Source: Octopus sinensis
Taxonomy: Eukaryota
Direction of reading: 5' to 3'
Assembly (NCBI RefSeq): GCF_006345805.1
Contig: NC_042999.1
Span: 75,764,001 to 75,828,000 of the forward strand
Length of the DNA stretch: 64,000 bases
In this document: positions 9,369-61,604 of the stretch, piece by piece
Numbering within the stretch: position 1 is the stretch's first letter
Layout: every line of letters begins with the position of its first letter
Notes under the pieces: generated by a model
The model's input: only the letters and a program-made list of their open reading frames with translations
Databases searched by the model: none
Told to the model about the DNA's origin: nothing
Position numbers and translations under genes: made by a program

Positions 9369-9421
<53 letters not shown>

Positions 9422-9590
9422 AAGAGGGATCAGCCATCTGAATGTGGCTAGGGTCAGGGCGGGGTGGTGGGGGTGTTACTGATGCATTTAGCCCCAGGCG
9501 AACATCGACGTCACCAGAAGAGCTGACACCATCTCGGTGTCCTTGCCAGCCAGCAAAGGGAGATCAGCCTCCCCGAAGATACGGATACTA

Positions 9591-9633
9591 CACACGGACC
9601 GGTTTCGAGGTTATTGCCTCTTGTCAACGTATG
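9591..9633 (-). ncRNA. Minimal type I hammerhead ribozyme (inverted copy of 10024-10066)
   Basis: Exact reverse complement of 10024-10066. Confidence 0.75.
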
Positions 9634-10023
9634 GTAAGCACCGCTCTTCGTTGAGGGACTTCCTCTGCAGGCTGGATATATATAGATTTTCACAGTAACC
9701 ACAGTCACTGGCGTAACCACAGTCACTGGCTGATCTCCCTTTGCTGGCTGGCAAGGACACCGAGATGGTGTCAGCTCTTCTGGTGACGTCGATGTTCGCC
9801 TGGGGCTAAATGCATCAGTAACACCCCCACCACCCCGTCCTGACCCTAGCCACATTCAGATGGCTGATCCCCCTTATGTTATAGAGCAGTTACTGTTTAT
9901 ATCTCGCCCAGAGATTTATTATTGTTTTCGAACAGATTTTCTAGGCCAGTGACTGTGGTTACTGTGAAAATCTATATATATCCAGCCTGCAGAGGAAGTC
10001 CCTCAACTAAGAGCGGTGCTTAC

Positions 10024-10066
10024 CATACGTTGACAAGAGGCAATAACCTCGAAACCGGTCCGTGTG
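10024..10066 (+). ncRNA. Minimal type I hammerhead ribozyme, U3-A8 core variant
   Basis: CAUACG-[UUGACAA]-GAGG caauaa CCUC-[GAAA]-CCG-GUC^-CGUGUG. Stem I 6 bp, stem II 4 bp, palindromic stem III ACCGGU. Predicted cleavage after 10060. Confidence 0.75.
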
Positions 10067-10284
10067 TAGTATCCGTATCTTCGGGTAGGCTGATCTCCCT
10101 TTGCTGGCTGTCAAGGACACCGAGATGGTTTCAGCTCTTCTGGTGACGTCGATGTTCGCCTGGGGCTAAATGCATCAGTAACACCCCCACCACCCCGCCC
10201 TGACCCTAGCCACATTCAGATGGCTGATCCCTCTTATGTTATAGAGCAGTTACTGTTTATATCTCGCCCAGAGATTTATTATTG

Positions 10285-10358
<74 letters not shown>

Positions 10359-11690: not shown

Positions 11691-11869
11691 TATACACACA
11701 CATATACATACATATATGCACATATATTTATTTATATATGTCTATATATGTTAATAGTCATGTAACATATTTTATATAACTACAGTATTATGAAACAGCT
11801 GTAAAGCTATAAAAACTACAATTACACACATCTACACAAACGAAATTTTAAAATATCACCATTACTAAC

Positions 11870-12095
11870 CGTTGTCCGAAAGTTATGGAGCAGATAACAT
11901 TGGCAATGGCTGTTTGCGTGACATCATGAATATCAAATGGTACATTCACCATTTGTTCAATGGCTGCGATGAAAGCTTTTAGTTCAGTTTGTACACGAAG
12001 TTCCAAGTTTGCTTTTCGAAGACCAAATTCTTTTAAAGCACCGAGCGTGAATTTCCTTTGTTCTTTCCAGGTAACACCATTCGTTGAAACAATTC
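11870..12095 (-). CDS. Cytochrome P450 (CYP2 clan-like), coding exon 2
   Basis: Acceptor ccttacag|GA completes the split Gly codon from exon 1. Reads GIVSTNGVTWKEQRKFTLGALKEFG (WxxxR C-helix motif)...ANVICSITFGQR. Donor CG|gttagt, phase 2. Confidence 0.92.
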
Positions 12096-12391
12096 CTGTA
12101 AGGATAGAAATGTATATATGTATATATGTTCGCACATGCACACACGCACACATACATAATACATACATATACATAATATATGTATGTATATATATATAAT
12201 ATATATATATATTATATATTATATATATATATATTATATATATATATTATTATTATTATTATTATTATTATTATCATCATTACTTGCTGCCGAATGTAAC
12301 TGCACTTGCGCGGTGGATTTGAAAAATCAGAATGTATGTGTACGTAGCACGCGAATTCACCATGCTGCATAATTATGCATTAATCTTAGCG

Positions 12392-12461
12392 CCCTTACTG
12401 AAGAAGCACGGATGGCAAATTAATTTATTTGCCCATTAACACAGAAACTCGAATCTAGGGG
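12392..12461 (+). ncRNA. Type I hammerhead-like motif, partly decayed
   Basis: CCCUUA-[CUGAAGA]-...GGCAAAU uaauuu AUUUGCC...-[GAAA]-CUCGAA-UC^-UAGGGG. Stem I is 6 bp, stem III is one substitution from palindrome ACUCGAGU, and the base of stem II is unpaired. Confidence 0.55.
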
Positions 12462-12580
12462 TAACTATAGAGATAATTTTATTTTCATTTTTCATTCACT
12501 GTGAAATTACTCTTATTCGTGGTTTGGGCTGTAACTGCCCTTTCTAGCATATATGTATTGATATGTACACTATTTTACAA

Positions 12581-20617: not shown

Positions 20618-20667
<50 letters not shown>

Positions 20668-20697
20668 GCGAGAAAGAAGCAACAAGAATGGATAGGT

Positions 20698-20788
20698 TTT
20701 TAGTACAATCGTTTCATACAAGGACAGGCTTTATTAAAAGTTGTAAAAATTACAGCATATAAACGTGTCCCGTACTCATCAGCTAAAA
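20698..20788 (-). ncRNA. Type I hammerhead ribozyme (inverted copy, sense to the P450 pre-mRNA)
   Basis: Reverse complement of 20868-20958. Confidence 0.8.
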
Positions 20789-20867
20789 TACATGTGAGTA
20801 CTTAATTATCTACATTACTTCATGAGTATAGCCTCAACCACTAGGATGTCTAGAGAACTCACATGTA

Positions 20868-20958
20868 TTTTAGCTGATGAGTACGGGACACGTTTATATG
20901 CTGTAATTTTTACAACTTTTAATAAAGCCTGTCCTTGTATGAAACGATTGTACTAAAA
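20868..20958 (+). ncRNA. Type I hammerhead ribozyme, canonical core, long stem II
   Basis: UUUUAG-[CUGAUGA]-GUACGGGACA...UGUCCUUGUAU-[GAAA]-CGAUU-GUA^-CUAAAA. Stem I 6 bp, stem III ACGAUUGU self-complementary with G.U pairs. Predicted cleavage after 20952. Confidence 0.8.
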
Positions 20959-21126
20959 ACCTATCCATTCTTGTTGCTTCTTTCTCGCTTATAATCACCC
21001 CACATTACTGTATTGTTAAAACAGTATAGTTTTTTTTGGTGCATCTAAGTTAGGTACCATATTCAAGTAAATTCATTTAAATTAACTTGAATCTTTATTG
21101 CTTTTTGAATATATATATATATATAG

Positions 21127-25980: not shown

Positions 25981-26003
25981 AATAATAATAATAATAATAA
26001 TAA

Positions 26004-26034
<31 letters not shown>

Positions 26035-26228
26035 AAGAAGAAGAAGAAGAAGAAGAAGATAGAGCGCCAGCCTTGACAGCGGCTGGACGTGTTCCTCACT
26101 GCTCTGACAGTTCGGTGGCTGAAAGCCATAGAAACACTAATATGGGCCAGTTTAGCAACGGGGAAAAATAACTCTCAAAGACTGGAACATCTACAATACC
26201 TCGTGAGTATTTGAAATTCTCTTCAAAG

Positions 26229-27138
26229 TGGGTTAAGAAATTTACAAATTTACATATCTGCAGCTTTCAAACATACATCCGATCGGCTTTAAAAACTTTA
26301 ATACCCACAACTGCCTCTGTAAGCACCCTTTTTTTCTTCTCTCTAAAAAAACATCACGCTTTTCTTTTTGTGGACTTGCAAAACCCTAAAACTTTCTATG
26401 AAAATCTGACTTTTCTTTGCTTCCTCCCAGAATATTCAAATATAAATGTAAACATATACTCTTTATTGCAAAACACACCTGTTCTTCTAACTGGACATAC
26501 AAACATCTCTAGAGGGGTCAACTTCAACCTCCACAATATTACCTTGCACGAAATATACAAACACTTTTTATTGCAATAACACAAACGCACATGGAAAAAA
26601 TAATGATGCTAAGATTCTCTCTGGTCGAACACAGCTTCTCTATTCACAAATAATACAGAACAGCCCTTCAAAATAAGTTAAGAAAATTTACAAATTTACA
26701 TATCTACAGTTTTCAATCATACATTCGACCAGCTTTAAAAACTTTGATACCCACAATTGCCTCTGTAAACATCCTTTTTTTTTCTTCTCTCTAAAAACAT
26801 CACGCTTTTCTTTTTTTGTTTTTTTTTGTTTTTGTGGACTTACAAAACCCTAAAACTTTCTATGAAAATCTGACTTTTCTTTGCTTCCTCCCTGAATATT
26901 CAAATATAAATGTAAACATATACTTTTTTATTGTAAAAACACACCTGTTCTTCTAACTGGACATACAAACATCTCTAGAAAAGTCAACTTCAACCTCCAC
27001 AATATTACCTTACAGGAAATATACAAACACTTTTTATTGCAATAACACAAACGCACGTGGGAAAAAAAAATGATGATGCTACGATTCTCTCTGGTCGAAC
27101 ACAACTTCTCTATTCACAAACAATACAGAACAGCCCTT
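26229..27138. repeat. ~445-bp tandem duplication
   Basis: gttaagaaatttacaaatttacatatc...aatacagaacagcccttc at ~26231-26668 and ~26676-27139, highly similar. Confidence 0.9.
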
Positions 27139-27589
27139 CCTTAATTTTTCTTAAGCCTAATAGTAGTAAACATCTGAACTTTTTTTTGACCGATAGAAAA
27201 AAGAGAAAAAAAAAAAAAATCACTGATGGTGATGATGATAATAATGATAGTAATAGTGCTGATAATCTATCTATCTATCAATACACACACACACACTCAA
27301 AGAGTTCAACCAACACAAAGAAAGTATTATTTGACAGGCAAGAACTCTAGTGTTGAAGACAGTCAGCCAGCCAACCACCAAGCCAGCCAACGAGACAGAC
27401 AGACACTACTGTGATGGTGATAATGATAAAAAAACAAAAATAACAATAATAAGATACTGCTGTGACTACACATAAAACAATATCATTGATGATGATGGTG
27501 GTGATGGTGATGGTGATGTTGAAAATGATGATGGTAATGGTGGTGATAATGATGATAGTGATGGTAATGGTGATGATAATAACAATAAT

Positions 27590-30500
27590 AAGCCGACTAC
27601 GGCTGCTATAATGGTACGATTATAATTGTAACGGCAATGATGGCCGTCTCCCCACGAGCCAATCAAAGCTAAAAAATGATAACATTATCGTAGCACCAAA
27701 GTGTTTTTGGAAACTAAAAGGAAAACTAAATCAGTATACCAAATCGCTTGTCCTATGGTTAATCTGGAAGCGCGTCCCCCAGGGAAGAGCCAGCCTGGGA
27801 TGGAAAAGTCATCAACTGGCACAAACTCTTCTCCGAATACGGACATGGATGGTCACTTGAACGGGAAATCCCCCAACTCGAGCCCTCCATGTTCACCACC
27901 ACAACCACCACAGAAAGAAAAATGTAAGCGGAACAAATGGACCCGAGAAGAGTATAAAGAAGTAATATACGCTTATTACTATGCATTAGGTAGGCCATCT
28001 CAAGAGAGACACACCGCAAACTCTTACAGTATATGGAGAACACGGAATCAAGACAGTAGGCCCTATTTGGACGAGAACAAATTAGCAAATGTGAGAGGGA
28101 TATCTTTAGAAATAACGACTCACAGACAGTGAAATAAGCGCGATCAAGCACGCAACGGAAAATGACATAATATAAGACACAAAGGAAATGAAGAATCAGA
28201 TGAACAGTATAGCCCGCCACGAGGCTTAATTGAAAGACTGCCATCTGACCAAAGTACGCAAAGGCCTGAAGATACAAGAAATTCTATTGTACCAGTTAAA
28301 GATAGCCAGGAAAACGAAAAACAACAGTAACTGAAGATCTCGCATTTGCTGAAGAACACAGAGAGTCTATGGCAGAAATGAGGCAGAAAATCCTGAATAC
28401 GCTTGAAGTTGTAAGACATACAGGTATGAATGATACAGAACCGCTTCATAAACTCTCAAATACAAACCAAAATAAAAAACAAATCCAAATTGGCAACTAT
28501 GTAGCAAATGAAATAATACGAGAATTAAAACCTGATTTTACTGAGTTAAATGAAATTATTTACGCTTCTGCTAGGGCAATTGAAACCAGCTGTATGCTCC
28601 CGAAAAAACAAAGAAAACAAAACCTGGGAAGAAATCAAACCTGGAGAAGTAAAATTGAAAAAGTGATTGAATTTATGAGAGGGGAAATATCAATATTAAA
28701 TGAACTAATATGTGGAAATGATGTAAGATCCAGAACAGGAAGAAAGATGAAGAGAAAATTGGATCCTCACCAAGAGAAGAACTGATATCAATAAAAGAAA
28801 CGCTGAAACAAAAAGTCCAAGCAAAAGCCCAAGAATACGAAGATTTGAGAAGAGAAACAAGTTTTACAAGCAAAATAAGCTGTTCACATCCAATGCCAAA
28901 AAATTCTACAGAGAAATAGGGAAGGAGAAAGTAACCGTTAAAGACGACCCCCCTCCATGGAAGAAGTTCAAAACTTTTGGAAAAGGATTTGGAGTGACAA
29001 GAAGACGTACAACATAAATGCAGACTGGATTATACAAACTGAAGGATCCTACCAAAATTTACAACAACAAGCATGGGAAGACATCACAATAGCAGACCTA
29101 AGAAAGGCACTCACGAAGGCCCATAATTGGAAATCCCCCGGTAAAGATAGGGTGCCGAATTTCTGGCTCGCATCGCTCCCGTGCGCACACGGTAAGCTAG
29201 TTCAGAGCTCAATGGAATTATGAGAGACCCAAAGAAAACACCTGAATGGTTAGCAAGTGGCATTACTTACCTACTCCCAAAGAATAACGAAACCAACCTT
29301 CCAAAAAACTATCGGCCTATAACCTGTCTATCCACCACGTATAAAATCCTAACATCTATCCTGGCGGAGAAAACATATGCATTCATGGAGAAACGATATT
29401 TTCCCTATTGAACAAAAAGGGTGCCGCCGAGGCTCTTACGGATGCAAAGATCAACTGCTAATCAATCGTATGATCCTTGAGAACTGTCACAACAAGCGCA
29501 GAAATCTCAGCACCGCATGGATTGACTATAAAAAGGCCTTCGACAGTATACCGCATCATGGATCTCGAGATCGCTGGACATCTTCAAAATTTCCCCTGTG
29601 ATTTCAAACTTCCTGAAGCACAATAGTCGTTGTGGAATACGAATCTCCAATTATACCACTCTAATGGAGTACTTGCTTCAGAAAATATAACATCAACTGT
29701 GGAATTTTTCAAGGTGACTCACTTTCACCTTTCATATTATATCATATCCCTATAACCCTAATCCCCTTACAGTGAATTAAACAGAACAGGGTATGGGTAT
29801 AAAATTGCCAATAAAAAATAAGCCATCTATTTTATATGGATGACTTAAAACTTTATGGTAAAGACAATAATGAACTTGAATGCCTATTGCGCACCGTGAA
29901 AGCATTCAGCGATGACATCGGGATGGAGTTTGGACTTGAGAAGTGTGCCAAGGCCACTTTCCAGAAGGGAAAGTGAAGACCACAAATTCAGTCGTGTTAG
30001 ATGTTGACAAAGTCATAAGAGAGCTTGAGCAAGAACAAACATACAAATATTTAGGGATAAATGAAGGCTCTGGTATTCAGCATGCAAGCATGAAAGAGAA
30101 GATCAGGAAGGAATGTTATAGGAGAGTTCGTGCAGTCCTGAAATCTGAACTAAATGCACGTAACAAGGTGCTAGCTATAAATTCCTTAGCGGTTCCAGTT
30201 GTTACTTATAGCTACAATGTGTTGAACTGGAATATGAGTGAAGTAAAGAATATAGATAGAAAAATACGCAAGCTGCTGAGTTGTAATAGGATGCACCACC
30301 CAAAGGCAGACGTAGATCGCCTTTACCTTCTCAGAGCCCAAGGAGGTCGAGGCCTGATCCAATTTGAACTAGCTTACAAAACAACCACAATTGGACTGGC
30401 CAAATATCTCGAAATATCGAATGACTGGATGCTAAAGCTCGTGGAAAATCACGAGAGACGAAAGAAGCTTCATTCTATCATCAAGGAAAGCAAAAAATTT

Positions 30501-31558
30501 GCTATTGATCTCGTGCAGGATACCCAAACTGAACAACCCGAGGGAAGTACGGCAACTATTGTTGCAAAGAAGGTGAAAATGATGGCAATGAAAAAAGCGC
30601 ACGAGCAATTGGCTGATAGGTGGGAGGAGAAACCTCTGCACGGCAAATATGTGACCCGCAGCAAACAAGCTGATGTTGACCAGAAGCAAAACCATCAGTG
30701 GCTGCGGAGCTCAGGGCTAAAAGCAGAGAGCGAAGGTTTCATCCTGGCTGCTCAAGACCAAAGCCTATTAACCCGGACTACCAGGCCAATGTGATGAAAA
30801 ATGGAGCAGACCCAAAATGCCGATTCTGCAACGACATGATTGAAACAGTGGACCACCTAATCTCTGGATGTAAAGTCTTAGCACCAGTGGAGTATAAATT
30901 AAGACATGACAGAGTTGGCCAATATCTCTACTGGCTAATAAGTCGGCATTACAATATAAAAACTGCCGACAAGTGGTATAATCACCACCCTGAGGCTGTA
31001 ACTGAAGGAGAAAATGTAACCATTCTGTGGGACTTTCCAGTACATACAGACCGAACCATCAAGGCCAATAAACCAGATATTGTTGTGAAAGACCAAAACA
31101 ATAAAGTTTGCTTATTGATCGACATGAGCATCCCCTGTGATCATAATATCTCAGCGAAAGAGTTTGACAAGCTCAGAAAATATAAAGACCTACTCATTGA
31201 AATTGAGAAAATGTGGCATCTCAAGGCGGTTACAATACCAGTGATCGTAGGAGCACTAGGAATGATCAAGAAGGGAACCGAAAATTATATGAGAATGATC
31301 CCTGGCTTACCATCCCTGCAAGAAGTGCAAAAGATTGTCTTAACTGGTACATCACACGTATTAAGAAGAGCATTGTCGATGTGAGAACTGTTGCTGCTCA
31401 TGTATTTTAATTTAACTTAAAAAAAAAAAAAAAAAAAAAATGAACGAACTACTGAGTTTGGTTTAATGGCCTACCAATATGCACTATGAGTTTCTTTGCC
31501 CTAGGAGTCGGGAAGACACTCGGCAAGAAATAGAAGAAAATTTGAAAGAAGAAAAAAA
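27590..31558 (+). mobile_element. Near full-length R4/Dong-clade non-LTR retrotransposon (RT + restriction-like endonuclease), frameshifted
   Basis: ATG at 27755. N-terminal KWTREE motif; RT motifs (KNYRPITCL, WIDYKKAFDS, GIFQGDSLSP, HLFYMDDLKL at ~29824); CRFC..ETVDHLISGC zinc knuckle; RHD; KPD..LIDMS..K..KY RLE. Stop at 31384, flanked by TAA repeats. Confidence 0.92.
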
Positions 31559-32149
31559 GTAATAATAATAATATGTTTCAAATTTTTCCACAAGGACAGG
31601 AATGTTGGGGAGGGGCGAGTTGATTACATCGACCCCAATGTTCAACTGGTACTTATTTTGTCAACCCCGAAAAGGTGAAAGGCAAAGTCAACATCGTTTT
31701 TTTTTATTTAAGTGACTCAGTACAGATGGAGACTGACCACAGCTGTTTTCCTAGGACAGCTTCAGGATATAAGAGGGTAAGGGGAAGGAATTCGACCAGT
31801 AAAAAAAATAGTATAAAGATGCAGAAAGTGAAAGTGAGCCTAAAAGAAGTGGTTATAGAAAACAGATGATAACATTTGGGGTAGCGAAGGGTTTGTTTAA
31901 AGTGGCTAAGCAGAAACTAGTAGACCAAGCTAATGCCATTTGGAGAAAAAAGTGGATGGCTGAATTGGAAGTGGAATGAATCACAAGGGAATTGGAAAAA
32001 AAAAAGACTAAGCACTAAAAAAGCAAAACAACAGTTTACACCGAAGAAGAAACTAAAGGAAAAATAATAATAGCACAGCTGATTGAGGACTAATTGGATA
32101 AAAGCCAAGATAGACAAAAACCAGGTAGGTTCCCAATGTAGGTTCTTTC

Positions 32150-32496
32150 TGCTGGCACAGAAAGAATGCAAGAAAAGACATAACCAATTAGGGAGAATAA
32201 TCCACTGGGAGTTATGGAGAAAGCTAGGATTTAACCATACTGTAGCCCGATGCTAAGAACTTTTCTTTTCCAACAGTTTAATCTGTTGTGCGTCAGTCAA
32301 ATACATAACTCACGCACAAAGACTTACGAATGCATATAACATACAGAAAATAATGCTGTTAGGCACCACGCACATCCTACCTAAGCACTTTCAATAGTGT
32401 GAAAATAAGAGCACTATAACAAACCACAGTACATACTCAAGGCACACAGAGCTACGCTCTCTAGTGCAGAGAAAACACATGATAGATATAAGACTG

Positions 32497-32500
<4 letters not shown>
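32150..32500 (+). mobile_element. Decayed R4/Dong-like 3' fragment (related to 25700-25980)
   Basis: RRHNQLGRIIHW-like remnant and a 3' tail acatac..aaggcacacagagct shared with 25900-25980. Confidence 0.55.
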
Positions 32501-32536
<36 letters not shown>

Positions 32537-32559
32537 TAATAATAATATAATAATAATAA

Positions 32560-32590
<31 letters not shown>

Positions 32591-32741
32591 AAGAAGAAGA
32601 AGAAGAGAGAAGAAGAAGAAGAAGAAGAGAAGAAGAAGAAGAAGAAGCAGAAGAAGAAGAAGAAGAAGAAGAAGAAGAAGAAGAAGAAGAAGAAGAAGAA
32701 GAAGAAGAAGAAGAAGAAGAAGAAGAAGAAGAAGAAGAAGA
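32500..32741. repeat. (TAA)n(GAA)n microsatellite
   Basis: Direct inspection. Confidence 0.95.
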
Positions 32742-33530
32742 ACCTCTCAATGGCAAATACCCAATGAGAGCGAATAATGCCGATGTTGACAAAGACCTTA
32801 CCCATCAATGGCTAATGGCGTCTGGCTTAAAATCAGAAGGGTTTTTCATAGCAGCCCAAGATCAATGCCTACCTACAAGGAATTACCAGGCCAACATATT
32901 AAAGAACGGCAGCTCCCCAATATGCCGTATATGTCAAAAATCAAAATGAGACCATCGATCATGTTTCCGTGTGCAGTTTTCTTGCGCCTACAGAATATCT
33001 TAACAGGCATGATAGAGCTGCACAATATATTCACTAGGTAATTTGCAAAAACCTGGACTTGTCCCATGATAAAAACTAGTGGGAACGCAAGCCACCCCCA
33101 GTGCTTGAAAATGATCACATTTCACTCCTCTGGAACTTCACCATTCAAACTGACAGAAAGATAGATGCAAATAGGCAAGCCATCATATTGAAAGACTTCA
33201 GACAAAAATCATGTCTCCTCATTGATATGACTATCCCAATCGATATAAACGTATCTGTCAAGACCTACCAAAAGCTGAGCAAGTATAAAGATCCTGAAAT
33301 AGAAATTAGCAAAATGTGGAACCTCAAGACTAAAACAGTACCTATTTTCATAGGTGCCCTAGGAATGATAGCAAAAGGGGCTGCTTCCTACCTAGCTCAG
33401 ATACCAGGAAACCCCAAAATGGTAGATATACAAAAGATAGTGCTCATGGGAACTGTCCGTTTCCTACGTAAAATACTATCTATGTTATCTCAAATTTTAA
33501 AACAAAAATAATTTTCTTGCGCAAAACCAA
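32741..33530 (+). mobile_element. 5'-truncated R4/Dong-like copy (same family as 35273-38280)
   Basis: HQWLMASGLKS..AAQDQCLPTRNY..CRIC..RHD..LLWNFTIQTD..LIDMT, near-identical to 37300-38050. Confidence 0.85.
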
Positions 33531-33554
33531 ATATTATTATTATTTGAGCTTATA

Positions 33555-33777
33555 CCTATTTCTTTACTACCCACAAGGGACTAAACACAGAGGACAGAAA
33601 AACGGATTAAGTCGATTACATCGACCCCAGTGCGTAACGGGTGCTTAATTTATCGACCCCGAAAGGATGAAATGCAAAGTCGACCTCGGAGGAATTTGAA
33701 CTCAGAACGTAACGTCAGACGAAATACAGCTAAGCATTTCGCCCGGCGTGCTACCGTTTCTCCCACCTCGCCACCTC

Positions 33778-33811
<34 letters not shown>

Positions 33812-34065
33812 TTAATAATAATAATAATAATAATAAACATAATCGACATAAATGTATCTGTCAAGACCTATCAAAAACTCAGCAAGTTTTGAGAGGAGAA
33901 GACTAGTCGATTACATCGACCCCAATGTTTCATTGGTTTAACGACCCCGAAACGATGAAAGGCAAAGTCCACCTTGGCGGAAGTTGAACTCCGAACGTAA
34001 TGACAGACGAAATGCCGCTAAGCATTTCGTCTAGCTGGCTAACGATTCTGCCGGCACACCACCTT
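33555..34065 (-). mobile_element. Two family A SINEs separated by (TAA)n and a short R4 fragment
   Basis: Reverse complement of the family A head/body at 33555-33778 and 33890-34065. Confidence 0.8.
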
Positions 34066-34076
34066 AATAATAACCA

Positions 34077-34147
<71 letters not shown>

Positions 34148-34148
<1 letters not shown>

Positions 34149-35216
34149 CCCACATTCTACGTAAGATATCAATTCAGTAGAGCAAAACAAATAAAACAAT
34201 CAACAAACACACTCTATACAGTAAATATCCAATGAAATAACCCTCAAAACATGTGTTCAACAGGTCGAATGCCCAACATAACATAACTCATATTACATAC
34301 GCCACACAATACAAACACTAAGACAACAAAAAACTCGGGACAAACCACATTTCTCCAAAAGGAGAATGGCTAGAAAAACCGATGCATGGCCGATACCCAA
34401 GTAGAGTGAACAAACCAGACATAGAAAAACGAGACATTCACCTATGGATGAAGAGCTCAGGACTGAAGGCTGAAACTGAAGGTTTATCATAGCAGCACAA
34501 GATCAAAGCTTGGCAACCAGAGCTTACCACAACAAAATAATGAACGATGGCACTGACCCGAAATGCAGAATGTGTCACGAGCAGGATGAAACAGTGAAAC
34601 ACATCTTAACTGGATGCACAGCGCTTGCAAAAAAAAAACGAATATATTCATAGGTACGATAGAGTAGCGCAATATATCCATTGGAGGATATGTAAAGATT
34701 ACCGGCTACCAACTTCAGAAAGATGGTAGAAGCATAAACCTGAAACTGTGACCGGGAAGGATGATGTAGCAGTACTCTGGGACATGCCGATCAACACCGA
34801 TAAAGAAATTAAGGAAAACAGGTCGGACATAATCATCAAAGATGGGAAGAATAAGAAATGCTTAATGATAGATGTGACAGTACCATCAGAGAGAAATGTA
34901 TCCATTAAAGAAGTTGAAATGTTACTTAAGTACAAAGACCTAGAAATAGAAGTGACCAAGATGTGGGGAAGGAAAGGCAGCACAGCGCCAGTGGTGATTG
35001 GAGCGTTAGAGTTAATTAAAAAGGGCCGTGATAAGCAGCTCAACAAACTCCATTGCAATGTTAACGTGGGAGAACTTCAGAAAATAGTGTTGCGCACTTT
35101 AGGTTCCGCACACATTTTACACCGTGTACTCTCCATGAGATGAGGACCTGCTGTGACCCTAGAGTCAAGGGATGACCCCGGTTCAGCAGAAGACAACGGA
35201 CCATATTTTATTTTAA

Positions 35217-35218: not shown

Positions 35219-35272
<54 letters not shown>

Positions 35273-35273
<1 letters not shown>

Positions 35274-38200: not shown

Positions 38201-38280
38201 TCCAACCCTGTTGTCTCTTGAGGTCTCTGGTGAGACTTGGAGCCAACTTGTACCAAATATAAAGCAAAAGTCAAACATAG
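35273..38280 (+). mobile_element. 5'-truncated R4/Dong-clade retrotransposon with RT and RLE, disrupted
   Basis: KNYRPITCL, GIFQGDSLSP, VYMDDLK (~36490), MHHPKAD..RLYLPRKEGGRGL, CRVC..ETIDH, RHD, RPD..LIDMT. Stop at 38053, (TAA)n on both sides. Confidence 0.92.
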
Positions 38281-38304
38281 AATAATAATAATAATAATAA
38301 TAAT

Positions 38305-38695
38305 AAACATAATCGACATAAATATATCTGTCAAGACCTACCAAAAAACTCAGCAAGTATAAAGATCTTGAAATAGAAATTGGCAAAATGTGAAACCTGA
38401 AGACTAAAGCAATACCTTTTGTCATAGCCGCCCTAGGAATGATAGCAAAAGGGGCTGATTCCTACATAGTTCAGATACCAGGAAACCCCAAAACGGCAGA
38501 AATTCAAAATATTGTGAAATCTCAAATTTTAAAATAAACTTATAATTTCCTTATGTTTTCTTAAACATTCTCTGAAGCAATACTATGTGTAAAACCAAGC
38601 ATAACACCAGCATGAACTTCTAACTTGTTATCTCTTGAGGTCCGTGGGTGAGATTTGGAGTCAACTTTTACAAATACAAAGCAAAAGTCAAACAT

Positions 38696-38698
<3 letters not shown>
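38305..38698 (+). mobile_element. Short 3' fragment of the same R4/Dong family
   Basis: Matches 37806-38280, flanked by (TAA)n. Confidence 0.85.
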
Positions 38699-38745
<47 letters not shown>

Positions 38746-38789
38746 TAATGATAATGGTAATAATAATAATAATAATAATAATTCCTTCT

Positions 38790-39656
38790 TATTGTGGCAT
38801 AAAGCCAGTAATTTTACGTATGGAGAGGGCACATTGACGCCGCCCCCACTTGTATTTATTTCAACAACTCCGAATGAATAAAAGACTAAGTCGACGGTAT
38901 TTCAAATCAGAACATAAAGCAGGAAGAAACGCCATTAAGCAATTTGTCCGACGCGCTAAGGATTTTATCAACTTTCCACCTGTAAACGAGAATGCTTATA
39001 TGCACCACAAAACCCCAACATCCATTTTAAGAGGAAGATAAATATTACCCTTTGGTGTTAGTAATGCTTCTGTCACCATTAATTTTTTAAAAATAATTCT
39101 TTATATTTTTGTTACAAAGCCAGCAATTCTAAGGTGAAGGAGCAAGTTCATTACATCGTGTCCCGTACTTGTCTGGTAGTATATTTTATCTACCTCGAAA
39201 GTATGAATGGTATAGTTGACTGTGGTGTCATTTGAACTCGGAACGTGAAAAGCTGGAAAAAAATGCCACGAAGCGTTTTGTTCAATGTGCTAAACGACGC
39301 TACCAGCTTACTTCCTTAACAACAGCAGCAGCAACAACAACAATAATAATTTCTTTTATTGGCCACAAGGGCTCAAGACATGGAGGACAATATCGAAGGA
39401 CGAGTTACAGTACAAAAAAAATTACAAAAAACATGTGGGGTTAATATCAATCAAATGGGGATACTACCATATTAAAGGATATAACAGAGGATATATAATA
39501 GAAAGCAGAGAAATAAATAATGAATAAATAGAATCGGCCCCAAAAGGATGAAAGGCAAAGTCGACCTCGGCAGAATTTGAACTCAGAATGAAAGGATGGG
39601 TGAAATGCTGCTAAGCATTTTGCCTGGCGTGCTAACGTTTCTGCCAGCTCGCTGCC

Positions 39657-39658
<2 letters not shown>
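38790..39658 (-). mobile_element. Cluster of decayed family A SINEs
   Basis: About three reverse-complement head/body matches, each next to AAT/AAC repeats. Confidence 0.6.
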
Positions 39659-39692
<34 letters not shown>

Positions 39693-40908
39693 GTAATAAT
39701 AATAATAACAATAATAATAATAACAATAATAACAATAATAATAACAACAACAACAACAACAACAATAATGATAATAATAACAATAATAATAATAGTAATA
39801 ATAATGATAATGATAATAACTAGCTGGACCCGTGAAAAATTCACGGACAACAAAAAATGTAAGCATCTGTAAACAGTGTACTGGTGCCATGAGAAATGTT
39901 TGTATATTATGACCGTCTTTCTTTATGTTCTGAGTTCAAATTCTGCCGAGATCGACTTTGCCTTTCGTCCTTTCGGGGTCTATAAATTAAGTATCAGTTG
40001 TGTACTAGGTTGATCTAATCTACTGGCCCCCTCCCCACAAAAAAATCAGGCCTAGAAAAGTATATTGTGACAGTTACAGAATATAGAAAGTAATGTAAAA
40101 GCAATAACTATAACATCCAACCAAAATATCTCAGTTACAACAACATAAACGGAATTACTATTTAACCTTAAAATACATCGTACATATTCAAAGAACCTTA
40201 ATGTATAAATTGAAATGCAAAATAACGAAATAATAAATGGATTTATGAATGAAAATTTAGTAATTGCGTTTATTTCCACCACGCGACATTTATTATTGCA
40301 AACATGTTTTAACTAACCTAAACTATACACACACACAAATACATTCATATACATATGTCTCGAGTTTTAGCTGTAATTACATGACCGGCCTCGTCATATT
40401 CTGTGTGAGACTGAATCTCTCCGAGAACTACATTAATGTTATACATGTCTGTGGAGTACTCAGCCATTTGTGAGTTAATTTTATCCACGTGTGGTAATGA
40501 AAAGTGAAATTGTCATCCAATATTTGCTGTGTATATGTATCTATGTATGAAATTTTCTTTGGATTTATGTATCTACTGTCTCTCTCTCTCTCTCACTTTC
40601 TCTCTTTCACTTTCCCTTCTTTGTGTCCCTCTTCTCTTCCTCTTTTGATTTAACCATGTATAAATGTATCAATATATCTACTTCTCTTGCGATGTGATAA
40701 ACATTTAAAAACACAAAACGAACGCCGTCACCACTCACTGTCACTTTCTCTTTCTCTCTCACTTTCTCTCGCTCTTTCTCCCTGACGTCCTCTCTGAAAC
40801 ATTTAAAACACAAAAAGAACACTGTCACCATTCACTTTCTCTTTCACTCAACAAGGTACGTACAACAGGTACGTACAAAAACAAAAAGATAGCGTATTAA
40901 TATTATTG

Positions 40909-40946
<38 letters not shown>

Positions 40947-40969
40947 TAATAATAATAATAATAATAATC

Positions 40970-41574
40970 CTTCCTACTAAAGGCAAAAGGCCTGAAATTT
41001 GGGGAAAGTGGACTAATCGATTACATCCAACATAATGTTTCACTGGTACTTAATCTATCGACTCCGAAACGCTGAAAGGCAAAGTCCACCTCGGCGGAAT
41101 TTGGACCAAAATGTAACAACAGAGGAAATACTGCTAAGGCAATTTGTCCAGCGAGCAAACGATTCTTCCAGCTCACCGTCTTATAATAATGGCTTCAAAT
41201 TTTGCCACAAAGGTAGCAATTTTGGTGGGAGGGGATAAGTCGATTACATCGACCCCAGTTTTCCGCAGACACCTAATTTATCGACCCGAAAGGGTGAAAG
41301 GCAAAATCGACCTCGGCGGATTTTGAACTCAGAATGTAGCGACGGGCGAAATACCTATTTCTTTACTACCCACAAGGGGCTAAACACAGAGAGGACAAAC
41401 AAGGACAGACAAAGGGATTAAATCGATTACATCGACCCCAGTGCGTAACTGGCACTTATTTAATCGACCCCGAAAGGATGAAAGGCAAAGTCGACCTCGG
41501 CGGAATTTGAACTCAGAACGTAGCGGCAGACGAAATACCGCTAAGCGTGCTAACAATACTGCCAGCTCACTGAC

Positions 41575-41577
<3 letters not shown>
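40970..41577 (-). mobile_element. Family A SINEs including a tandem dimer-like copy
   Basis: 41200-41577 mirrors the dimeric structure of 1029-1440. Confidence 0.8.
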
Positions 41578-41626
<49 letters not shown>

Positions 41627-41941
41627 CAACAACAACAACAACAACACAACACGACGACGAAGAGGATGATGATAATGATGATGAGGATGATGATGATGAT
41701 GATGATGATTTCTTTAGTGGGTACAAGGACTGAAATTAGCTATAAGAAGATATGTTATCCAAAACGACAGCTGCATTATACAATAATGACATCAACGATA
41801 ATAAAAACGATAAGAACACAATATGGAACTGGCGACAACAAAGTAAAAGAAAAAATAGAAAGCACGCGCAGAAGCAGCAAGAGCAATATTATCAACAAAC
41901 ACAACAACAACAACAGCAACATCAACAACAGCAATAACAAT

Positions 41942-41972
<31 letters not shown>

Positions 41973-42260
41973 TTTGCAACAGCAACAACAGAAAGAGCGG
42001 TTAAATTAGCATCAATAATAACAATAGCAAGGAGGACAATAAACATAAAAATTGGTATAAAGCGAAACATGCAAAATAGCAACAACATCAGCAACAACGA
42101 GAGAGAACACTAAGAAGTAGACCAACAACAACAATAACAACAACAACAAAATCAGCAAATGAAAAGAATGAAAAGAATAGGATCAAAAGAATAAAAATAA
42201 AATAAATATTAAAAAAAATATAAGTATAATAAAAAAATATGTGAATGGAAAGAAGCTCAC

Positions 42261-42600
42261 CTTTCCCTTGTCCTAGTTTCTCAGTAATCAGGGTACTCGC
42301 CTTGGTACTAAACACGGCGGCATTTTTCACAAACGCTTCTTTGAAGACTTCATAACCGTTGAAGAAAATCAGAAGTTTATTACCAACGTAGATACTGAAT
42401 ATATCACCATATTGTCGCTGGAGACTTGCTAGTACATCACCCGGATGCGTTCCCGTGAACAGCGCTGTGCTACCCAAAATTGGGATGCGAACCGGCCCTG
42501 GAGGAATGCCCTTTGGTCGTCTCATTAGCATCCAAATGAGAACTCCGGTAAGGATAAAGATAAAAAAGCTAACGACATCCTCAACAGATTGATACCACAT
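42261..42600 (-). CDS. Cytochrome P450 (CYP2 clan-like), coding exon 1
   Basis: MWYQSVEDVVSFFIFILTGVLIWMLM (membrane anchor), RRPKGIPPGPVRIPILGS (basic + proline-rich hinge), then YGDIFSIYVG...GYEVFKEAFVK...LGQGK. Ends at AAAG|gtgag donor, 340 nt, phase 1. Confidence 0.92.
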
Positions 42601-49295: not shown

Positions 49296-49503
49296 TGTGT
49301 GTGTGTGTGTTTGGAAGTCTTTGTGACAATTACTTAATACAGTTTTTAAGTATAAAGGGGATTTTTAAAAGAAAATTATTTTTTAGAAAAATTTATAAAA
49401 CCTTTTATCAGGATGTTACTAACCTTTTTGGAAGAAGTTTTTTTCTTAGTGTCTTTTACCCTAGAAGATTTTTCCTATTTACTGTCGGTGACGTCTTGTG
49501 CCC

Positions 49504-49536
<33 letters not shown>

Positions 49537-49565
49537 GATATATATATATATATATGCATATATTG

Positions 49566-50190
49566 GCACAAGACGTCACCGACAGTAAATAACATGAAAT
49601 ACGAAAACAAATGAGTAAATACGCAAATAACGATAGAAAAAAATGGAAAACCGTGAAGTAATACAAAAAACGACCCTCCATCAGTTGTCGGCTGTCTATA
49701 TACTCCCCGTTTCCAGCAACAATACGAGTCTTCGAAGACAATTGCTCCCATAAATACCAAAGTAAAATTTTGGATTTATGGAGGGTCAATGCTGGGGAAA
49801 AAAAGGACAGTGGAGATATGTAGGGAAACCGAATGAAAATAAACCTGGGTCGTTAGACCTGGACGAGGGAAAAATAGTGAACGCTGAGAGAAATATTTTC
49901 TTCGAAAATAGAAAAGATGCAAAAGAGAGATATAGGAGATGTCCAGTCCTTAGAACGTCTGAGCAGGAAAGAAAGATGGAAAAGAAATATGGACGATGGT
50001 CACTTGTGCTCAACGAGAGAGAGAGAAAGAGAAAGGGGAGAGAGACGGCTAGAAACGGTGAAAGGGAGAAAAGGGAATTAGAGATGATGGAGAGAAAACA
50101 ATAGAGAGTAGAGTCACATCCAAAAAGTTAAGATAAACTTACTTGGAAATGGATGCGTGGCGTTCAATTAAATAATAATATAAATAATAT
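49566..50190. mobile_element. Unclassified (TA)n-embedded non-coding element
   Basis: Bounded by (TA)n. Its first 27 nt are an inverted copy of 49476-49502 on the other side of the TA tract. GA-rich interior like the minus strand of 13016-14019. Confidence 0.45.
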
Positions 50191-50206: not shown

Positions 50207-50274
<68 letters not shown>

Positions 50275-50282
<8 letters not shown>

Positions 50283-50606
50283 AAATGAGGTAATCAGAAG
50301 ATCGGATGGTTCATGTTTATAGATATTTATTTATATATTACATTTTTTACATATATATATCATATCATTCAGATCATATCATTCAGATTATTAGCGCTTT
50401 CTCCCATTCCAGTGGGGTTTTCAAATCAAATTGATTTGATTTGAAAACCCCACAGGAATGGGAGAAAGCGCTAATAATCTGAATGATATGATATATATAT
50501 GTAAAAAATGTAATATATAAATAAATATCTATAAACATGAACCATCCGATCTTCTGATTACCTTATTTCTTCTAATATATAATACCTGTACATCATCTCC
50601 AAACCT

Positions 50607-50611
<5 letters not shown>
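50275..50611. mobile_element. Palindromic non-autonomous Penelope-like element in (TA)n
   Basis: 50275-~50429 is a near-perfect inverted repeat of ~50432-50575, with a ~35-nt extra tail on the right. (TA)n on both sides. Confidence 0.75.
50433..50479 (+). ncRNA. Minimal type I hammerhead-like motif, U3-A8 core (inverted copy at ~50386-50429, minus)
   Basis: GAUU(UG)AU-[UUGAAAA]-cCCCA caggaa UGGGa-[GAAA]-GCGC-UA^-AUAAUC. Palindromic stem III AGCGCU. The stem II closing pair is a C.A mismatch and stem I is bulged. Confidence 0.5.
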
Positions 50612-57141: not shown

Positions 57142-57175
<34 letters not shown>

Positions 57176-60100
57176 GTCATATGCAGTATGTCTAGATATA
57201 TCTAGCAAACATTAAATCTAGTGAAATTCGTCCACATTGTTGTTAAACTACTGCCCCAAATCTCTCTGATGATCTTTAATGATGTCCACACATAATTGTT
57301 TTATCAGCAATTCAAAGGCTAGGCTTCCTTTTCATAGTCATAAAATATTTCAACTCTTATCAGTTATAGACACTCAACAAAGGTCAAGTGGGACCTATGT
57401 TAGGGCTCTACTGATGTATTTCAGACAATGATGCTGCTGTACACACAAGCATTTTAAAGAGCATCATCAAAAATTCCAACTAATTTATTAAAGTACAACT
57501 CCTAGATGAACTATTTCTCTATTCTACCATTAAAACAACGATCTCTGTTCCGAACCAGGAAGCTCCACGGCGCCTTTGATCCGATTCTCGCTACTCCTCT
57601 CGTCCTTACGTTTTCCATAATTTAATCTCGTCCTTCGCACTATTCTTCAGCCTCCTAACTGCAGACACATACTAATAGAAGTTCAAAGTAAGTATCAATT
57701 GCATCGATCTTCTCGCTGTCAATGGTCAGGGCTTTTGGCCCTGGTGGTCGGACTGATTAATAAAAATATACAAGAAAGTAGAGATGACCAATACACTTAA
57801 TTAAGACAAATCTTTTAGTATGGAGCTAGCAATGGTGTAATTTCTTTGTAACCAATTCGTTTCATTTAAACCGTTTGTGTGACTTGAAAAAGTGTGTAAA
57901 TTCTGACATCCCGCCCTAAGTATTTATAGAACCTGGGTATTGATCGTAGTTTTATCTTAAGCTAAAGTGAAATCTCTAATAGCAATCTGAGCTCATAATC
58001 CTATTTTAAGTTCTAATTCAAGTTATCTACGCCAATATTTCCATTCTAAAAATCATAAATGCCACACAACCATATATTTGTCAAATGCAAATTTGTGGCA
58101 TTTAAATTTTGAAATCAGGGAGAAATTATCAAATTTCAAACAGAAAAATGAGAACTTCCAAACATGATTTGGGATTCATACACCATAACCTACTTGTAAA
58201 ACTTAAGATAACACGATCAGGATGCACACTACAAATCGTCTTCTAGTGATAGTAATTTCCATGTTTTGGAGCCGGCGGAACCTTAAAGGAAACTGATGCA
58301 TTTCAGATGAACTAAATTGAATTTCATAGATACATTATTCATGTACACATATCCGCTCTCTATAGTTTTATGCTGATGTAAACCAAATCGTCACTGAATA
58401 GGTCACTTTGAAAAAAAAAATCTACAATAGGAGGAAACAAAGTTTTAAAAAGACATAGCTAAGACACTATGAAAACTACATCATTTGCTAAGATATAGCT
58501 AATGTTAATAGAAATTATTTTCTGAACTACAAAAATCCATTTTTGATTTGAAATACTTGAGAAATAGATTTCCCAATTCCTTAGAATTTATTCTAATCTA
58601 TTGAAATAGCTTTTTCTAAGCAAGGCTGGAATATTCCAGTGACAAGACAAACAGAAGAAATGTATATTTAAATATTACCATGTATACACCATTGAGAGGA
58701 TGCGTGCCTTAGTGATTAGGGTATTCGGCTCACGATAGTAAGGCTTTGAGTTCGATTCCCAATAGTGCGTTGTATCCTTGAGCAAGACAATTTAGTTCGC
58801 GTTGCTCCAGTCCACTCAGTTGGCAAAAATGAATTGTACCTGTGATTTAAAGGGCCAGTCTTGTCACACTTTTTGTCGCGCTGAACCTTTCTAAAAACAA
58901 CATTAATGATACGCGTGTCCGTGGAGTGTTCAACCATTTGCACGTTAATTTTACGAGCTGGCTGTTTTGTTGAGAGAATCAACCAGAACACTCATTGTCG
59001 TCGTCGTAAACGACGGAGAGCCAGGCCATACCCCATTAAACTACATCGAACACACTTGCACCAAATCTTAACTGAAGACTCGCCATTCATCCGTTTTTAC
59101 ATGCGCAGGCATAGGAAAAAATATATCCGCTGATTACTTCCACGGTGTAAGAACACTTATATCTACGTTTTATTAGTTTTCGTAATATTTTACCTCTATT
59201 TTAAAATGCTGTCGGTAGTGTGATATGTTGTGTACAAGGCGATATTTTATCATATGTTGTGTCATGTACAAGCTGATACAATATTCATCACCTAAGACGC
59301 TGTCCCTGTATTAGGACTAAATCAGGTTGCAGAGTCTTACCCACTTCAAACTATATTGTAAGTAGGAGTCAATTTTTGAAGGCCCTGGACACTGAGTCAG
59401 TATTTTTAATGTTAGTGACAATCTTTGATGCTAATTATACCTTTAAACTCACATAAATCCATGTAAGGATATTTCTTTGGCAGCAATAACAGGCACATCT
59501 CAATACCATCTGCAACTCTCTTTTATCACAGTTAACTGGACTTGGACTATTTCTCACATATGTCTTCTAACCTCGGATAAAATTCAACACCAAAGACAAA
59601 ATGCAAACCATCAATTCTTCAACTACTTGAGCACTATCGGCTTACGACAAAATAAAAAAAAAAGTAGTTTTCTTCAACATAGGCTGTGTTTGATGAACGA
59701 TAGATTTGTAAACATTGGAATACCTGATCTATTCAGCCATTTCATATCTTTAAGTGAAAAAAAAAACTGTGCAGTACCGATGATGTGTTCGATGACCAGC
59801 TTCTGCTTTCCCCTACGTAATTAGAAGAAATATTCAACCCAACATTAATCAGAATTGATGATGGAAAATAAAGGGTAAATTTTCTCAGTTTATATGGTCA
59901 GTATCTGAATGTATTTTGTTTTAGAGATTATCAAGGAGAAGGAGCAGCATAAACGAGCATTGAGAGATTCCCAGGCAGATGAGGAATGATGCAGGTCACT
60001 ATCGGTGCGGAGGGAGATGAGTCTCTGCTCTGAATGTTTGCATCAGAATCAACTCCTTTGAAAGAACAATAGACCAAACTGTGGTATTAAACAGGACCAT
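55100..60100 (-). mobile_element. Possible long, highly decayed LINE
   Basis: Scattered weak motifs only (RAKSPD near 57740; CG..IEH near 55690); non-microsatellite, coding-like composition. Confidence 0.3.
58697..59022 (+). mobile_element. tRNA-derived SINE related to family B
   Basis: gtgccttagtgattaggg...gagttcgattccc head; 3' body shared with 18150-18320. Confidence 0.7.
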
Positions 60101-60395
60101 GCATTAGGCCTACCATATATCGCACTTCGTTTGATTCTCGTGTAATCTAATTTTTTTCTTTAGTATAAACTGTAACTTGCTCATTAGACGTCATGTTAAA
60201 TACTGCTAGGACCCATACTTAATAACCAAATAACTTTCTAAAGTAGTAATATTTTGTAAAAATGTTTTTCTGTTCAGCAATCATTTCTAAAATATTTTTT
60301 AGTACTCGGTTCAGTAGTTTCTAAAATATCAAAGTAGACGCTTAAATAATCAATCAAGCAAACAAAAGTTTTTAACAAATTTACACATAATATTT

Positions 60396-60451
<56 letters not shown>

Positions 60452-61233
60452 ATATTTCTGGTTAGATATGTTGAATGCAAAAAATGAAAGTTGCGCTGTG
60501 TTGCTTTAGGGCAAGTAACAATTATTTTGTACCCAATTAATGAGATAAGTTGTAGTCTATGTTTAAAAAGAACGTCATTTTCAGAGAATAATTTGAATAC
60601 CAGGAATTCCGTTCTGTATGAGGAGGAGGGGTAGGGTGGAGGAGAAAAAGAAAGAACAAATGAAAGTGTGCCGAAGAGACAAAGGAAAAGAAAAATCTCA
60701 GGGAAACTTAAGCCATCAGCTACATTAACAAACATGTATAATCCATTTGAATGCATACATTCATACACACGGACACTCATATAAAAATATAGACAGACAG
60801 ATAGAGATATATAGATAGATTTAAGTATGTAATAGAGACAAAAACCAAATGTTGATATTTTGATATTTTGAATGCATTTAATACGCGTCATTCGAGTTAA
60901 TTGTGTAAGAATTCTCATAAGTAATTGCTCGAAACGTGTATTAAATGCATTCAAAATATCAACATATGATTTTATCTTTATAAAATATTGCATGACTTTC
61001 TTCCACACAAGTCTAGCCTGTTCTTGCCTCGATAATACTATTTCTATTCACAAGGATTTAGGAGTAGAATGTTTTAGAAGACACAAGTCAAAAAAATTCT
61101 TGTAAAGTATATAGCATCATTGCACACTTCTCAGCACACACATATATATAGGTCAGGAAAAATGCACTCGTATATTTGTCAGAGTGGGTATATTAGTCGA
61201 AGTGTACAATATTATATATCAAATACGACCGAT

Positions 61234-61310
61234 CGTATCGATCGGTTTCGCATTAGGAGTTTAACGGAGTGCTAAGTCCGATTATGTAACCCAGCGCTCT
61301 TCAGAAATGG
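61234..61310 (-). ncRNA. Decayed hammerhead-like motif with truncated inverted copy (61333-61367)
   Basis: [CUGAAGA]-GCGCUGGG...CCUAAUGC-[GAAA]-CCGA-UC. Stem II base 7/8 paired, stem III one change from ACCGGU, stem I eroded. Confidence 0.45.
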
Positions 61311-61604
61311 CACGCCATATTTCGTTCTATAACTGCCATCTGTGAAGAACGCTGCATAATCGGACTGATTTGATAGCTATACACAAGCATACAATATTAC
61401 TTTTCAGTCTCGTCTTTTCTTTTGTTAAAGCGGTATGGTTTTAAATTGAGAATACTTAGCTATTTCCAGCTAGCCTGCTGATCATGTTGAAGTACTCCCT
61501 GTGCTGATATAAGTACTATCGGTGTGCTAAAGCTAAAAGTGTTCGGTATTTAAATACATAACACGTTTAGAGTTGTACATTGATAAAAAGTAGAATTTTG
61601 TTTT

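Follow-up and report, generated by a model that had tools for sequence, protein, structure and literature searches.

Are the small hammerhead ribozyme loci in a 64-kb stretch of the Octopus sinensis genome protein-free mobile elements, or are they the ends of elements that encode their own reverse transcriptase (RT)? The stretch, referred to here as the window (assembly GCF_006345805.1, contig NC_042999.1, positions 75,764,001 to 75,828,000; 64,000 nucleotides [nt] in full), contains five such loci, which we designate E1 (9414-10286), E2 (12280-12578), E3 (20663-21108), E4 (50269-50611), and E5 (61189-61367). A preliminary description had read all five as type I hammerhead elements without open reading frames (ORFs), non-autonomous and mobilized in trans. 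The loci do lie at about the positions given there, and a search of the 2.72-Gb genome found a multi-copy family behind each, so the concern that they might be single-copy sequences fell away. We conclude, with a probability of roughly 85%, that E3, E4, and E5 are 5'-truncated ends of coding Penelope-like elements (PLEs), and that E1 and E2 are tandem units that encode no protein and that PLE enzymes likely copy in trans. Both kinds already are known from other animals. Retrozymes, which are short head-to-tail units with a type I hammerhead and no ORF, have been described in corals, mussels, and amphibians; E1 and E2 are of this form, and E3, E4, and E5 are not.

In the genome search, the best 40 candidates per family were scored in a first look, and the best 25 to 30 matches were analyzed in depth. 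The first-look candidates, which are not copy numbers, amounted to 1860 for E1, 637 for E2, 1308 for E3, 2296 for E4, and 319 for E5. The best other copies were 100% identical to the window copy for E3, 93 to 98% for E1, 91 to 99% for E4, 78 to 86% for E2, and 73 to 82% for E5; by this measure E3 is very young, and both E2 and E5 are old. The loci share a common build, namely, an inverted 5'-truncated arm, a tail at one end, and a (TA)n target, which is the anatomy of a PLE insertion. An inverted arm was present within 1.5 kb at 13 of 24 E3 loci, 10 of 25 E4 loci, and 2 of 25 E5 loci. None of the five window copies has an ORF (no tblastn match in the window). This part of the preliminary description stands for the copies themselves but not for three of the five families, as longer copies of E3, E4, and E5 lead to sequence for an RT and a GIY-YIG endonuclease, decayed in the case of E5.

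The E3 sense arm (20803-21108, plus strand) is the terminal repeat of a 4.65-kb Hydra-type PLE and ends in a 115-nt tail (20994-21108), and its hammerhead (20869-20957) has a C3-G8 core, a long stem II, and a near-palindromic stem III, ACGAUUGU, with cleavage predicted after 20952. The inverted arm (20663-20802, minus strand) lacks the tail and carries an intact hammerhead at 20699-20787; it is 99% identical to positions 20854-20993. Two loci, L304 and L305, hold copies of 4.6 to 4.65 kb in which the ORF lies between two pseudo-long terminal repeats (pLTRs), the repeats being 98 to 99.6% identical to the window copy; flanking pLTRs were found in L303 to L305. Longer copies continue into an ORF with a YRDD motif and a GIY-YIG domain, and in L302 the parental frame upstream of the repeat is 947 amino acids long and contains both the YRDD and GIY-YIG endonuclease motifs. 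The one-arm tail is the start of the element body, with an ATG 54 nt further on. Pfam scores for this protein were weak (GIY-YIG, E value of 0.002; no RVT_1), and the motifs were read by eye. RWK and DKT motifs, a CxCx5C linker, the lack of a CCHH motif, and the (TA)n target agree with the published description of the Hydra clade (PMC8557442), and the supplements to that study, which list molluscan Hydra families, may include this parent.

E4 also leads to a coding element. Its sense arm (50434-50611, plus strand) is the end of the terminal repeat of a PLE of ~5.2 kb with RT and GIY-YIG domains; it includes a 30-nt tail (50582-50611) and a degenerate U3-A8 hammerhead-like motif (50436-50478). 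The inverted arm (50269-50431, minus strand) has no tail. At L318, a 751-amino-acid ORF (Pfam RVT_1, E value of 1e-8; GIY-YIG, E value of 0.004) is flanked by two E4 copies ~5.2 kb apart, and RT and GIY-YIG sequences also lie upstream of E4 in L141 and L137. The DKG motif and CX4CX2C linker suggest a parent of the Neptune/Nematis type.

The third parent is decayed. The main arm of E5 (61189-61311, minus strand) is the end of an old Hydra-like PLE, with damage in stems I and III and 84% identity to the consensus; the opposite arm (61313-61367, plus strand) retains just the 5' half of the motif, in which a G replaces C3, and lacks GAAA. A consensus built from 25 loci regains the fold, with ACCGAUUGGU, a stem III of A-CCGAUUGG-U, and cleavage after GUA. 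The stem III proposed earlier, ACCGaU, was out of register. In L145, remnants of a Hydra-like RT, linker, and endonuclease run into the E5 end, and parts of these are common to L142 to L144. No pLTR was seen on both sides of the E5 ORF, unlike E3 and E4. An RT ORF with a C-terminal GIY-YIG domain, as expected of endonuclease-positive PLEs, was found in the parents of E3 (947 amino acids), E4 (751 amino acids), and E5 (decayed remnants), and the search for linked Penelope ORFs that the preliminary description had proposed succeeded for these three families.

E1 is of a different kind. It consists of an inverted arm (9414-9715, minus strand) that ends without a tail and has an intact hammerhead at 9591-9633, a partial, 5'-truncated tandem unit (9728-9926, plus strand) that begins downstream of the hammerhead and includes the tail, and a full 360-nt unit without an ORF (9927-10286, plus strand; 48% GC). 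The arms (9414-9715 and 9942-10243) are 98% identical. The type I hammerhead of the full unit (10024-10066, plus strand) has a 6-bp stem I, the U3-A8 core UUGACAA, a 4-bp stem II with the loop CAAUAA, and a palindromic ACCGGU, with a predicted cut after 10060. Its helix sizes are canonical, loop 2 has 6 nt, and stem I contains an internal loop, features that match HH9 and set E1 apart from the other loci; the HH9 match, together with the example of the Schistosoma ribozyme, suggests that the loops may form tertiary contacts.

The E1 tail (10244-10286, plus strand; 43 nt) is on one arm only. After the tail, 27 of 29 loci resume at the beginning of E1's own 360-nt unit, forming a head-to-tail junction, and copies end at two positions only, near 317 and 360 of the unit. 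All 18 two-armed loci had the tail at exactly one end; because the loci were picked as best matches to a query that includes the tail, some tail was bound to be present, but its confinement to one end was not. The one-sided tail is the signature of PLE reverse transcription, here on a unit with a canonical-type hammerhead. Three pattern searches for relatives or a helper (257, 483, and 386 matches, with the first 30 places of each examined) extended the family to subfamilies down to 67% identity with units of 354 to 360 nt. No PLE ORF in register with E1 was found among the 30 best matches or 90 pattern-picked loci (partly overlapping sets). RT and endonuclease pieces near E1 or E2 belonged to other families. 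A distant E1 relative was noted at L328, L340, and L348 to L351; it shares E1's stem II and has the loop CAAACA, a stem III of CUAG, different flanks, and inverted arms. Contigs from a run presumed to be RNA covered 9920-10206 at a depth of 219, but contigs show no ends, strand, or level and so give no evidence either way on expression. A SINE (short interspersed nuclear element) piece within E1 also was considered and dropped, as the high depth of the 3' half fits truncated sister subfamilies.

E2 (12280-12578, plus strand) is a single decayed, 5'-truncated copy of an ORF-less tandem unit of ~465 nt and 33% GC. Alignments span the unit junction in many of 25 loci, with two end positions (near 405 to 410 and 490 to 500 on the doubled unit). 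The hammerhead-like motif in the window (12391-12462, plus strand) retains a 7-bp stem I and the core CUGAAGA, with damage to the base of stem II and to the stem III palindrome; the consensus of the 25 loci regains the fold, with the 7-bp stem I and ACUCGAGU. Two candidate parents were rejected. A GIY-YIG ORF upstream of the E2 copy in L147 is part of a separate PLE family that has an end of its own, and among the 30 loci of that family only L150 (the same locus) and one partial match carry E2, and an RT beside E2 in L100 lies outside the inverted arm. Hammerhead elements were seen to insert into (TA)n at the ends of other PLE-type copies (L147:7870-8143 and L303:1192-1398), and such nested insertions can mimic a parent-child link.

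The hammerhead fold itself was assessed with a strict type I descriptor (N3-N8 core, GAAA, UH, and stems I and II) and with a relaxed setting (stem I, 3/5; stem II, 3/4). The strict descriptor found four motifs at two of the five loci (E1 and E3, on both strands of each), compared with 0.01 per dinucleotide-shuffled window in 100 shuffles and none in 60 shuffles. E4 passed only the relaxed setting, and E2 and E5 passed neither in the window. When core, GAAA, NUH, and three stems were required, E1 and E3 had the full type I structure in the window and E2 and E5 only in their consensus sequences; the stems of E4 failed. The earlier claim of a type I hammerhead at all five loci therefore holds for E1 and E3, applies to E2 and E5 only as consensus sequences, and does not apply to E4, which is degenerate even there. 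An Rfam scan of the whole window found no hammerhead; all that it returned were weak matches of microRNA and snoRNA type, most of them lying on microsatellites or inverted repeats. Narrow scans matched E1 to Hammerhead_HH9 (26.9 bits; E value of 3.3e-5; below the gathering threshold of 52) and E3 weakly to Hammerhead_1 (18.4 bits; E value of 0.03), and narrow scans of E4 and E2 gave no match.

Covariation added to this picture. Among 9 sequences from E3 and its sister families, 19 columns are invariant, of which 14 make up the catalytic core and cleavage triplet; in stems I and III, both partners change in 6 of the 8 pairs, with 98.6% of cells paired against 32 to 41% in slid controls; the E1 superfamily showed 5 of 13 pairs changing on both sides among 11 distinct rows (2 of 13 in a narrower set). 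These alignments were cut around motifs picked by descriptor or pattern, so pairing is favored by choice and independent changes are few. Stem III was a perfect palindrome (CCGG, CUGCAG, CCGCGG, or CUAG) in 66 of 74 E1-type motifs. The comparison indicates that the hammerhead fold is likely under selection in the E3 and E1 groups. The expectation that the core would be better kept than the rest was borne out there by covarying stems and an invariant core but only slightly in E2 and E5.

The targets also follow the PLE pattern. A (TA)4+ run lay at the 3' end of 21 of 29 E1 loci, 22 of 24 E3 loci, and 24 of 25 E4 loci (background, 5%), with lower values for E2 (16 of 25; background, 17%) and E5 (8 of 25; background, 6%). 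Target-site duplications are unreadable inside (TA)n. In the window, three loci (E1, E3, and E4) sit in (TA)n, as the preliminary description had it, and the same three have the inverted arms that it assigned to four; the plus arm of E5 is only half a motif, and E2 is single. The PLE connection, palindromic stem III, and AT-rich targets proposed there were borne out.

These observations fit a single mechanism. A PLE protein would bind the element RNA while its GIY-YIG domain nicks (TA)n DNA; the target bias was observed here, and the chemistry is taken from work on Poseidon (PMC11167929). Reverse transcription then would begin internally on the RNA, at either of two fixed positions downstream of the hammerhead, a cause suggested by the same study, giving the observed ends with or without a tail of 30 to 115 nt. 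Synthesis usually would halt early, and a second, inverted copy would be joined head to head; the resulting structure is what we observed, and the steps are proposed. Such early stops and inverted joining would leave most insertions with just the end that carries the hammerhead. In the case of E1 and E2, the template may be a short multimer or, as put forward for retrozymes (PMC7229834), a circle; the enzyme then would pass the unit junction and leave the head-to-tail units that were observed. The hammerheads are predicted to cut as dimers via the palindromic stem III, by analogy with PMC4209133, and the two-armed window copies probably are inert, as pairing between their arms is predicted to hide the ribozyme.

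Three other explanations were weighed. That all five loci are non-autonomous hammerhead mini-elements moved in trans, as the preliminary description held, accords with the ORF-less window copies and with the short length of most top E4 and E5 matches. It suits E1 and E2, for which no helper was found, but E3, E4, and E5 are coding-PLE ends: their longer copies are continuous with RT and GIY-YIG coding sequence, complete pLTR-ORF-pLTR copies exist for E3 and E4, which refutes the idea for these two, and the 5' ends of copies of all three are ragged. We therefore consider it the least probable of the alternatives, with next to no chance of holding for all five. The converse, that E1 and E2 also are truncated ends of coding PLEs whose parents were not sampled, draws on the facts that partial tandems are normal for PLEs (PMC8557442) and that only the best 40 candidates were scored per search. 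Against this, the 27 E1 loci noted above and subfamilies down to 67% identity re-enter the 360-nt unit at its start once past the tail, while in E3 and E4 the tail leads to an ORF, and the RT and endonuclease sequences near E1 and E2 belong to other families; we regard this explanation as improbable.

A third possibility is that an enzyme from outside the PLEs, such as that of a long interspersed nuclear element (LINE), copies E1 and E2 as retrozymes, or that they spread as satellites by recombination. No helper was identified, LINEs and PLEs both have been named as candidates (PMC7229834), and local tandem amplification has been proposed (bioRxiv 10.64898/2026.07.22.740005). However, the copies are dispersed, contain one to three units, and show inverted 5' arms, two fixed ends, and (TA)n targets, which is the PLE pattern, and no poly(A) tail was seen; this makes a LINE or satellite origin very unlikely.

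Several points weigh against our preferred reading, that of coding-PLE ends for E3, E4, and E5 and of PLE-copied units for E1 and E2. BLAST searches of E1 and E2 against 32 loci with long PLE ORFs and against all 321 collected loci found no coding helper. Because of this, the case for their trans-mobilization is built on insertion anatomy, and a rare long parent of either could escape sampling of the best 25 to 30 matches. Under the strict pattern, two same-strand hammerheads occurred in only 8 of 29 E1 loci, and the window locus has one per strand. As circles, the E1 unit (z = -0.55) folded no better than shuffled sequences and the E2 unit gave a z of -0.87; a sister subfamily of E1 reached -6.9. 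The E5 link comes mainly from one long decayed copy (L145). Core positions were only slightly better kept than the rest in E2 (0.905 versus 0.883) and E5 (0.964 versus 0.908), which is as expected for dead copies yet is no proof of selection. In nearly every E4 copy listed (the top 25 variants of 41 motifs), stem I is only 2 bp long and a C.A mismatch sits at the base of stem II; given these weak stems, the E4 motif may not cut. A sister motif in L103, which has E4's GAAA-GCGC-UA-AUAAU end, has perfect stems. Published PLE hammerheads are reported to cut poorly and to be dispensable for insertion in vitro (PMC4209133 and PMC11167929), and a preprint reports a failure to cut for 8 of 9 frog retrozyme dimers (bioRxiv 10.64898/2026.07.22.740005).

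Forty 10-kb stretches at round coordinates (400 kb of unselected DNA) were scanned. They contained 6 strict motifs, compared with 0.13 in shuffled sequences; by extrapolation, the genome would hold ~40,000 strict motifs (Poisson range, 15,000 to 89,000), not all of them checked for a PLE link. The strict motifs among the 321 collected loci, a biased set, formed 25 sequence clusters. The dense and diverse hammerhead population that had been proposed thus is real at the genome scale, and the window exceeds the genome's density only modestly, with two strict loci against an expectation of about one motif. All four Watson-Crick 3-8 pairs (C3-G8, U3-A8, G3-C8, and A3-U8) occur in the genome. An abundant repeat with a strict hammerhead-like motif (G3-C8 core GUGAACA; stem III, AUAU) was seen at L266:226, L276:8001, and five more loci, with two copies in the 400 kb of unselected DNA, and a PLE family with RT and GIY-YIG domains (L300:2780, minus strand; 3' ends in L150 to L179) has a hammerhead with the A3-U8 core AUGAAUA and ACCGGU.

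Some of the loci lie in a host gene. A CYP2U1-like gene is encoded on the minus strand, with exon 1 at 42259-42600, exon 2 at 11866-12096 (84% identity to an Argonauta hians protein), and a first intron of 30 kb; intron 1 contains E2 and E3, intron 2 probably contains E1, and no later exon was found in the window. The hammerheads on the minus strand of E1 and E3 therefore are in gene sense. Cleavage of the pre-mRNA by them is unlikely, because the predicted fold of each locus is a 140- or 300-bp hairpin in which the hammerhead would be buried. The same cytochrome P450 intron probably holds a LINE, as an RT-like plus-strand frame lies near 35434-35859 (~35400-35900, within an A-rich stretch at 26000-42000). 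A ~35-nt inverted repeat around a (TA)n core at 49476-49591 possibly is a small palindromic element or an insertion remnant. RT relatives of the elements include Argonauta and Octopus proteins, with most homologs unnamed. Two gene models named as ankyrin-repeat or GATA zinc-finger proteins (P0018 and P0003) contain PLE RT sequence (68% and 43% identity) and probably are misannotated or chimeric.

This is largely a catalogue result, as hammerhead PLE ends and retrozymes both are known kinds. Its more useful part is E1, a retrozyme-type unit with a PLE integration signature in every informative copy. We give even odds to a broader proposal, that E1 is a large, still young octopod retrozyme superfamily (354- to 360-nt units; 67 to 98% identity) with a canonical, tertiary-stabilized U3-A8 hammerhead and a circular RNA, inserted by a PLE enzyme that starts at two fixed internal sites. 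If so, the strict restriction of the 43-nt tail to one side would provide direct evidence, at the genome level, for movement of retrozymes in trans by PLE proteins; arguments for this link have until now drawn on co-occurrence and on homology between terminal repeats. In that case, E1 also would supply a small RNA suited to in vitro study of PLE-driven mobilization. The four N3-N8 forms and many palindromic stem III sequences also make a natural covariation set useful for studying dimeric hammerheads.

Penelope families have been annotated as abundant in octopus, with 31 recently active in O. vulgaris, in accounts of these families that do not mention ribozymes (PMC13282606 and PMC8967140), and 235 Rfam hammerheads are reported for the giant squid (PMC6962438). 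Our literature search found no paper on octopus PLE hammerheads or retrozymes; Repbase, Dfam, and supplements may hold these families. Thousands of minimal hammerheads in many families, with U3-A8 cores, opposite-strand pairs, and truncated PLEs, are described in invertebrate genomes (PMC4209133). The metazoan pLTR hammerheads of that study (Cervera and de la Pena, 2014) resemble those reported here in their type I fold, palindromic stem III, U3-A8 variant, and long stem II, and in the many families per genome, mostly truncated copies, and opposite-strand pairs 100 to 700 bp apart. The present loci differ in their octopod host, in the 6- to 8-nt palindromes and 40- to 65-nt stem II regions of E3, E2, and E5, and in the degenerate E4.

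E1 and E2 share ORF-less tandem units with one type I hammerhead per unit with the animal non-LTR retrozymes (PMC7229834 and bioRxiv 10.64898/2026.07.22.740005), which in vertebrates have been argued to be non-autonomous PLE derivatives (bioRxiv 10.64898/2026.07.22.740005). Unlike these, E1 has a U3-A8 core, arrays of one to three units, and a PLE-type inverted arm with a one-sided tail; the word "inverted" is absent from the main text of PMC7229834, and no homology to a coding-PLE terminal repeat was found among the searched loci. Among coding PLEs, whose tandem, inverted, and tail structures have been described (PMC8557442), the E3 parent resembles the Hydra clade in its RWK, DKT, CxCx5C, and CxxC plus CxH motifs, C-terminal GIY-YIG domain, hammerhead, and (TA)n target, and differs in its length (4.65 kb versus <3 kb) and Asn-rich insertions; this placement is suggested by motifs. 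The E4 parent shares GLKF, DKG, the CX4CX2C linker, and a GIY-YIG domain with two Cys and a later His with Neptune/Nematis-type PLEs (PMC8557442), from which a microsatellite-rich 3' region of ~1.3 kb sets it apart, the clade again being suggested by motifs. Compared with Poseidon of Anolis (Frangieh et al., 2024; PMC11167929), the tails here are 30, 43, and 115 nt, an ORF follows the tail in E3, and E1 has no ORF. Shared with Poseidon are the two fixed end points downstream of the hammerhead, with an optional tail between them, the location of that tail near the 5' side of the body in E3 and E4, and an AT-rich target.

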